A DNA stretch of 53,252 nucleotides. It comes from Gammaproteobacteria bacterium (GTDB taxonomy: Bacteria > Pseudomonadota > Gammaproteobacteria > Comchoanobacterales > Comchoanobacteraceae). The DNA is taken from NCBI GenBank assembly GCA_040264995.1, contig JBDQHG010000001.1, positions 1 through 53,252 on the forward strand. The letters run 5' to 3'. Shown piece after piece: positions 28,242 through 29,071 of this stretch. The stretch's first letter is position 1; each line of letters opens with the position of its first letter. A program made the translations under genes and the position numbers. A model generated the notes under the pieces. That model ran no database searches and was not told where the DNA came from. It saw only the letters and a program-made list of their open reading frames with translations.

Positions 28242-28504
28242 TATTTGGGGTTGGGAGAGGCGGCTAGTAGAAAAAATAAGAAAAAATCTGTCAAGATGAG
28301 TTACGCGTCTGTAACTGTCTCTGAGACACATTACTGGAGAAGTGCTATGAGCATGTTAACGAGGCTGTGGCGCGGGCTTAAAAGTTTAGCGAGTATTCCC
28401 CTAGAGAAGAGAAAGCCGTCAATGCAACGCCGGTTCTTACCGAAAAACCCCTATATACAGGCCTACCTGAGGAGGCTGCGTCCACGTATTATGATGCCGA
28501 TGAC

Positions 28505-29071
28505 ATGAGCGCAGCTTCTGTACAGTATGCTACGGTTGATGATGAGCAGGCTAAGGCTGATGATCTTAGGGGTGAGCTGATAAGTAAAATTACACAAGCC
28601 ATAATGGGTGACAATACAGCAGGAGTAGGGCCAATGGTTAATCTTCCTCCCAACCATGATGTAGCTAAATGTAACGAAGCCGTAACAAAAGTTGCTGCTA
28701 GCTTGGCTAAACAGCTAGAAGGGGAGGGAGACTTATCGTTGCAAGAATTGCAAACGAAAATCATAGAGGTTTCCAAGGTCAGTATTGTCGCTCAACTAAA
28801 CAACGCTATCGCTATAAAAGAAGGGAGCGCTAACAAGCTATTAGGGAACAAAGAAGAAAATCGATTTAGTATTGCCTTGAGAGCTACGGTGGCCCAGAGA
28901 CCAGCTGATCAAAACGTGTATGATGAAGCCCCTGCTTCTGAGCCGATGAAGACTCCTCAGGGGGAAGGTCTTAGAGCCCAGGTGAATAGTAGTCTAGCTG
29001 CTTCTGCAAAGAAGACAGGAGATTCAGGCCCTTCGTCAGCCCAAGGCGCTCCGCCTAGACCGCCTAGATAG
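28505..29071 (+). CDS. Orphan protein with tyrosine-phosphorylation-like and SH3-ligand motifs; 5' part appears decayed
   Basis: 188-aa ORF whose frame is open from 28382; VQYATVDDE, QNVYDEAP, C-terminal APPRPPR. Confidence 0.65.
   Translation: MSAASVQYATVDDEQAKADDLRGELISKITQAIMGDNTAGVGPMVNLPPNHDVAKCNEAVTKVAASLAKQLEGEGDLSLQELQTKIIEVSKVSIVAQLNNAIAIKEGSANKLLGNKEENRFSIALRATVAQRPADQNVYDEAPASEPMKTPQGEGLRAQVNSSLAASAKKTGDSGPSSAQGAPPRPPR

Follow-up and report, generated by a model that had tools for sequence, protein, structure and literature searches.

A candidate phosphotyrosine docking protein encoded by an orphan gene in a Comchoanobacteraceae genome with a probable choanoflagellate host

Tyrosine-motif effectors, the locus and its probable host

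EPIYA-like effectors include Helicobacter pylori CagA, Bartonella BepD, BepE and BepF, Anaplasma AnkA and AteA, EPEC Tir, Chlamydia Tarp and Lawsonia LI0666, and in the literature surveyed here all tyrosine-phosphorylated bacterial effectors come from animal pathogens. AteA provides a non-mammalian precedent, being phosphorylated by Src/Abl and described as binding tick Crk and RasGAP (PMC13753828). The 188-aa product of an open reading frame (ORF) at 28505..29071 (+) of our window, the 53,252-nucleotide stretch of DNA analyzed here, shares with these effectors the short tyrosine-centered motifs, flexible regions (predicted in this case), a lineage-specific distribution and a secretion-competent, host-associated source. 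Its first motif, SVQYATVDD, and the variants of this motif in relatives resemble CagA EPIYATIDD, AnkA STYTTVG and DLYATVG, and BepD VYATVG, and its second, DQNVYDEAP, resembles the IYDEV of Tir (PMC13457649). It differs from the known effectors in carrying two motifs with no tandem array and no glutamate at position −3, in a secretion route that would be Dot/Icm (type IVB) where theirs is IVA or III, and in a likely host that is a unicellular holozoan and not an animal. No homology to EPIYA-like effectors was found with phmmer, Pfam or NCBIfam. The protein would work like an EPIYA-type effector, yet it is not a member of that class by the strict motif test.

Two further systems bear comparison. 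VQYATV of the 188-aa protein fits the ITIM/ITSM consensus of animal receptors (I/V/L/S-x-Y-x-x-L/V; PMC13457649), but the protein is soluble, with neither a transmembrane helix nor any hydrophobic segment in its 188 residues, and so does not form a receptor tail; moreover, its relatives P0002 and P0003 have lost the hydrophobic residue at −2 and with it the consensus. Like the Dot/Icm effectors of Legionella and Coxiella, it is an orphan in a reduced, Dot/Icm-encoding genome related to Coxiella, and is small and polar with an Ala/Ser-rich C-terminus; unlike them, it has no E-block secretion signal, eukaryote-like domain or homology.

The genome holding the window (G000, from a small marine bacterium; the window is its contig C1) measures 950 kb (0.95 Mb) at 69% completeness. 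Its closest named relative is Ca. Synchoanobacter obligatus, with which it shares 71% identity in EF-P (record L002), and it is classed in the same genus as a second genome, G001. Ca. Synchoanobacter obligatus is described as an obligate associate and physical partner of the choanoflagellate Bicosta minor, with a host-dependent metabolism and an expressed Coxiella-like type IV secretion system (PMC9418006). In G000, a syntenic Dot/Icm cluster lies on contig C5, where 4 of the 15 proteins scanned against NCBIfam exceed equivalog cut-offs (DotB, DotM/IcmP, IcmL/DotI and IcmJ/DotN), accompanied by DotA-, DotD- and IcmG-like genes and a coupling-protein match that fall below cut-off or match at subfamily level. 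This places G000 among organisms with a type III or IV secretion system. Contig C5 also bears a DotA/TraY-like tandem pair (G000:C5:61-6025), with similar-sized syntenic genes at C22:137-6447, which suggests an expanded DotA array.

With a 0.95-Mb genome congeneric with a choanoflagellate associate, G000 has a choanoflagellate as its probable host, by analogy with that congener. The first-pass annotation had predicted a host with phosphotyrosine signaling from the motifs, a prediction that is independently upheld: the nearest named relative lives with a choanoflagellate, and choanoflagellates are well supplied with Src/Abl/Csk kinases and SH2 proteins; G000 itself encodes Dot/Icm along with other proteins in which tyrosine motifs cluster more clearly. 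Phosphotyrosine signaling is elaborately developed in choanoflagellates, and little is known of its natural outputs. Their kinase set includes Src, Abl, Csk and Tec, and 123 SH2 proteins are counted in Monosiga brevicollis (PMC4342544), whose Crk SH2 domain binds pYxxP; multi-YxxP tails occur on transmembrane proteins of S. rosetta (PTSG_05573 and others) (PMC5043372). We found no published phosphotyrosine mimicry for this lineage or for choanoflagellate symbionts; "tyrosine" occurs 0 times in the main text of PMC9418006, a count confined to that main text, and the supplementary data on host-interaction proteins could bear on it.

The reading we favor, holding it with as much doubt as confidence, is that the 188-aa ORF encodes a secreted protein that, once phosphorylated on tyrosine, would serve as a docking platform in a choanoflagellate. 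Secretion, the host, phosphorylation and the readers are all inferred, and would combine as follows. Dot/Icm would deliver the protein to the host, where Src/Abl-type kinases would phosphorylate Tyr8 and perhaps Tyr139; host SH2 proteins would dock on the phosphorylated tyrosines, and the C-terminal PPRPPR could add an SH3 contact in this strain. The first motif (Y-A/T-T-V, with a hydrophobic residue at +3) would be the conserved docking site, individual strains would have gained the second motif and PxxPxR as additions with fast turnover, and a putative helical core may serve localization or another contact. Naming SHP2 and Nck, the partners of CagA and Tir, as specific partners of this protein is not justified by our results.

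Relatives, genomic slot and 5' end of the gene

The target is a real orphan gene, and a fast-evolving one. Run in full, phmmer returned 4 hits: the protein itself, P0002 (164 aa, 54–63% identity), P0003 (81 aa, ~65%) and a nematode repeat protein, P0004, which we dropped as a low-complexity match. There are two divergent relatives in all (54–66% identity), P0002 being the one full-length example and P0003 apparently truncated, and a shorter search returned P0003 alone. The target sits in a 4-member protein cluster. Homologs were absent from all 30 other family genomes (alignment A2 search), from 40 relatives (protein search) and from JGI metagenome contigs in two scans of a set that possibly lacks the nearest records. 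G000 has no paralog, and there was no Pfam or NCBIfam family, no phage match and no usable hit in the ESM Atlas.

The gene occupies a slot between tRNA/dapF and efp, with a tRNA of CAT anticodon (28128..28203, −) at its left edge, preceded by a sigma70-like promoter at 28241-28213. Unrelated orphans occupy this slot in G001, G006 and G021, marking it as a high-turnover site. Two of them, G006 L083:5408-6211 and G021:C1:976647-977363, are unrelated orphans that each have an N-terminal hydrophobic segment and a pattern that we take to be IQ-like and calmodulin-binding.

The neighbors of the target are housekeeping genes, and the signals used by the effector predictor S4TE are missing: 0 of the 12 motifs on its EPIYA list occur in the 229-aa frame, there is no ExxY, and there are 0 glutamates at positions −26 to −4, where an E-block would lie. 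The E-block is reported to detect only 61% of known cases, and the precision given for such a feature in Legionella is 23% (PMC6448907). Housekeeping neighbors and a missing E-block would suit a protein that serves the bacterial cell itself, perhaps as the target of a bacterial tyrosine kinase, with no link to a host. We regard this as highly improbable, given the absence of the gene from 30/30 other family genomes, the turnover of the slot and the eukaryote-type character of the motifs.

The ORF lies in a stop-to-stop open frame of 229 aa (28382-29071, +) whose first ATG, GTG or TTG is at 28505, and its likely current product is rich in A, S, E, K and G, with two tyrosines and no tryptophan. 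Both tyrosine motifs and the PPRPPR end are present as first annotated. The 41 in-frame codons upstream (28382..28504), a coding-like remnant or extension with no ATG, GTG or TTG, add four tyrosines, in the EKPLYTGL and STYYDADD already pointed out and in KFSEYSP, a sixth tyrosine not listed at that time. Upstream again (28322..28381), an in-frame TGA (28322-28324) and TAA (28379-28381) stand around 18 coding-like codons, a stretch that is probably a decayed 5' part. In a hexamer coding model trained without the target (median 0.24 for known genes), the ORF scores 0.19, 28382-28504 scores 0.23 (matched by 2.4% of 1562 intergenic 40-hexamer chunks), 28325-28378 scores 0.225, and the frame beyond 28322 scores 0.02. 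The suggestion that this frame still resembles protein past both stops is borne out in part, back to 28325 but not beyond 28322.

The stops themselves were examined in contigs of 8 marine or estuarine sequencing runs aligned on the region. One, X18, begins at 28382, so that 7 of the 8 span both stops; X19 and X20 seem to be duplicate entries of one data set, and X8 may be the source, which leaves about 5 independent runs. In all 7 spanning runs the stops are in frame with the same bases, and neither an alternative base nor an indel occurs at either. Identical bases in independent runs show that the stops are real, and an assembly error at these positions is ruled out. Recoding is ruled out as well, since all three stop codons terminate long ORFs (231 TAA, 125 TAG, 98 TGA). 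An overlapping 70-codon ORF in another frame (28296..28508, +) ends on the ATG at 28505 (ATGA), and the start at 28505 is possibly coupled to that stop. As a true N-terminus over most of its length this ORF is disfavored, because, its first ~10 codons apart, its score is that of non-coding DNA (−0.34 over 28326-28382).

Read most simply, the gene was once longer and its 5' end has probably decayed, with the loss of an N-terminal part bearing further tyrosines and a start now at 28505. The earlier proposal of a longer gene is supported back to about 28325, with the qualification that what remains there is a decayed remnant. A YYD-x-D of the upstream region is present in P0003 and P0005, the latter with an in-frame indel; our searches found no longer form of the protein, which is weak evidence.

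Decay could have gone further, leaving the ORF as the relic of an effector that has dropped out of translation or use. Such an outcome, which we think distinctly unlikely, would fit the two in-frame stops and the lack of a start codon in the coding-like 5' region, the apparent shortness of P0003, the absence of a Shine-Dalgarno sequence before 28505 and of a + strand promoter match upstream of the ORF, and the strain SNPs inside it, 3/3 of which are non-synonymous. The SNPs are too few to interpret and fit drift as well as diversifying selection, and SD-like words precede just ~20% of conserved genes in G000. Against the loss of function, the 188 codons are open in every run and cluster member examined, the frame of P0002 is intact across several in-frame gaps, and P0002, P0003 and P0005 share the start Met, with Met-Ser common to the first two. 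Pseudogenes are also rare in the G000 assembly, where one true internal stop was found among conserved genes (1 among 695 G001 proteins with hits). That stop is an in-frame TAG at 45733-45735 that splits the transketolase gene (window 45451-47373, +) at a position where G001 and G021 have Trp.

At window positions 28470-28486, an AGGAGG is followed after 8 bases by an in-frame codon that is not a standard start; it lies 7 codons ahead of 28505, where the start of P0003 is called. This is a possible, weak alternative start, which P0005 lacks. No stable RNA structure follows the TAA (z −0.6), and no Rfam elements were found except tRNAs.

Motif conservation, chance and a predicted helical core

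SH2 ligand specificity lies C-terminal to the tyrosine. In the first motif (28517..28543, +; Tyr8 of 188), which fits an ITIM-type consensus, it is this side that is conserved: the core Y-[AT]-T-V-[DG]-D is kept in P0002, P0003, P0005 and P0007 while upstream residues diverge, with Y, T(+2), V(+3) and D(+5) invariant in 4/4 rows (variants QYATVDD, EYTTVDD and VYATVGD). The second motif (28907..28933, +; Tyr139 of 188; like EHIYDEV of Tir) lies in a low-confidence linker and is deleted in P0002, the one relative spanning it, where another Tyr stands a few residues further on; in some strains its −2 Asn is replaced by Lys. The C-terminal PPRPPR (29051..29068, +) matches PxxPxR, the class II SH3 ligand consensus, and no other ORF among the 935 of G000 ends in this way; P0002 does not have it. 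Of the original picture of a CagA/Tir-like candidate effector with an SH3 ligand, the part kept in 2/2 divergent relatives is the motif 1 core. The Tir-like YDEAP and the SH3 ligand are both missing from P0002, and the EPIYA list, ExxY and E-block lend that picture no support.

Single EPIYA-like matches are very common according to PMC2999339, a reason for caution. That short motifs can arise by chance was noted when the locus was first annotated, and a G001 protein with YATI, VYDEA and PSRPER is a DEAH helicase and a chance look-alike. In a looser motif grammar, the first motif has the hydrophobic −2, the A/D/E at +1 and the hydrophobic +3, and the second has only −1 and +1. Among 5977 tyrosines of conserved proteins, Y[AT]T[VI] occurs at 0.13% and the ITIM consensus at 6.9%, both patterns having been chosen after the protein had been seen. 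The target is the sole G000 ORF (of at least 120 aa and at least 2 Tyr) in which every tyrosine fits a Nck/Src-type pattern. Genome-wide, non-conserved disordered tyrosines show no enrichment of the motif grammar (p 0.34 in G000, 0.75 in G001).

Two profiles were built from the tails of receptor-like proteins of the lineage, which are described in the next section. The first used every one of the 41 distinct tyrosines in the tails of three such proteins and excluded the target (background of 5845 Tyr). With it, four successive tyrosines along the 229-aa frame (Y36, Y37, Y49 and Y180) all come within the top 1%, and the ORF ranks 3 of 799, after two training proteins (composition shuffles p 0.003–0.005). 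With the second, limited to 21 windows from the tails of G001 and G021, the ranking drops to the top 5–7% for Y49 and Y180 and to 6 of 799 for the ORF; shuffles give p 0.014 for the 188-aa and 0.001 for the 229-aa sequence, a signal that is no longer significant after correction for 799 proteins. The motifs exceed chance modestly, and the motif statistics alone are suggestive, not decisive.

AlphaFold2, run from a 6-row alignment, gave a model with a mean pLDDT of 49: residues 1–51 of the 229-aa frame are of low confidence, residues 52–146 (28535..28819, +) form a predicted core of three helices (pLDDT ~52–72), and the remainder is mostly low. No PDB fold match was obtained for this structure at E<=0.001, and a second model, of P0002, was left out at pLDDT 40. 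With low confidence, both tyrosines of the ORF are predicted to lie outside the helices, in floppy flanks. The notion of a pure scaffold does not survive, since ~95 residues form the predicted helical core.

The best-kept blocks of the family (ELISKIT-AIMG, G-V-x-PMV and FSIALRATVA) lie in this core, and the first motif stands directly before helix 1, so that structure could explain its conservation; its pattern would be expected of an SH2 ligand but could also arise from a helix cap. The protein may instead be a host-directed orphan acting through its helical core, with Tyr and Pro motifs that are chance or helix-cap features. This explanation, which we judge unlikely but deserving of weight, draws on the lack of conservation of motif 2 and PxxPxR, on the frequency of ITIM-like matches among ordinary tyrosines and on the chance triad of the helicase. 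It does not easily account for the simultaneous match of both of just two tyrosines, for the high scores of the upstream YYD pair and its retention in relatives, or for the fact that G000 builds tyrosine-motif tails elsewhere.

Other tyrosine-motif proteins of the lineage

That last point rests on receptor-like proteins with an N-terminal LRR-like cap, a Thr/Pro-rich stalk, one hydrophobic segment and a tail. Three are encoded in G000 (G000:C10:18578-20578, L145, −; G000:C29:8482-10008, L146, +; G000:C10:17664-18476, −) and one each in G001 (G001:C1:39492-40829) and G021 (L150:1444-2730), so that LRR-stalk-TM proteins occur in 3 of the 31 family genomes; a fourth hit, in G013, is an unrelated LRR protein. 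The four long tails contain 11–18 tyrosines (5.5–7.7% Tyr vs 3.5%), all four have IYAVP or IYAVV, and YxxP is found at 5/18, 4/14, 4/12 and 4/11 tail tyrosines vs a background of 4.3%. These receptor-like tail proteins are a stronger phosphotyrosine-mimic candidate than the 188-aa ORF. Their likeness to the choanoflagellate multi-YxxP transmembrane proteins that bind Crk SH2 is one of layout (PMC5043372), and the 188-aa protein, unlike those, has neither YxxP nor a transmembrane helix.

An orphan of G000 that runs off its contig end (G000:C73:2892-3362, −; L147) has 4/4 tyrosines in YxN motifs (YVNV, YENV, YENV and YENI) vs 3.6% in the background (binomial p 1.6e-6, calculated post hoc), presumably of Grb2 type. 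Its bin assignment is less secure, since only 1 of the 6 ORFs on this 3.4-kb contig matches G001. As the lineage evidently builds arrays of tyrosine motifs, the odds of a phosphotyrosine reading of the 188-aa ORF are raised.

Set side by side, these proteins allow a wider proposal, to which we give slightly less than even credence: that those Comchoanobacteraceae that live as symbionts of choanoflagellates carry a phosphotyrosine-mimic kit, made up of SH2/SH3 docking proteins that are small and secreted, an orphan with Grb2-type YxN motifs, and conserved LRR-stalk-TM proteins whose tails bear YxxP of the Crk/Abl type. If true, it would amount to a CagA/Tir-style hijack of signaling in a unicellular, pre-animal host, delivered by Dot/Icm, and such mimicry would work on pre-animal signaling. 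The proteins would then point to the choanoflagellate kinases and SH2 readers that control phagocytosis or defense. The idea is directly testable in cultured choanoflagellates and with purified Monosiga Src, Abl and Crk.

Further orphans with tyrosine or proline motifs were seen along the way. Two in G001 (C1:172027-172773, −, and C1:178350-179432, +) contain PPPLP motifs as well as several tyrosine motifs (YENP, YANP, LYAVI; IYDLA, VYDIA, VYDQD), and three YDQAS repeats end the product of G021:C1:628596-630455. Within the window, positions 31474-34848 (−) encode a 1124-aa protein with no Pfam match, 22% identical to its G001 neighbor and with a Pro-rich C-terminus (PTPPCPPP), which we regard as another effector-like orphan. 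Further unannotated ORFs of the window lie at 18045-19277, 20863-25385 and 4890-7807.
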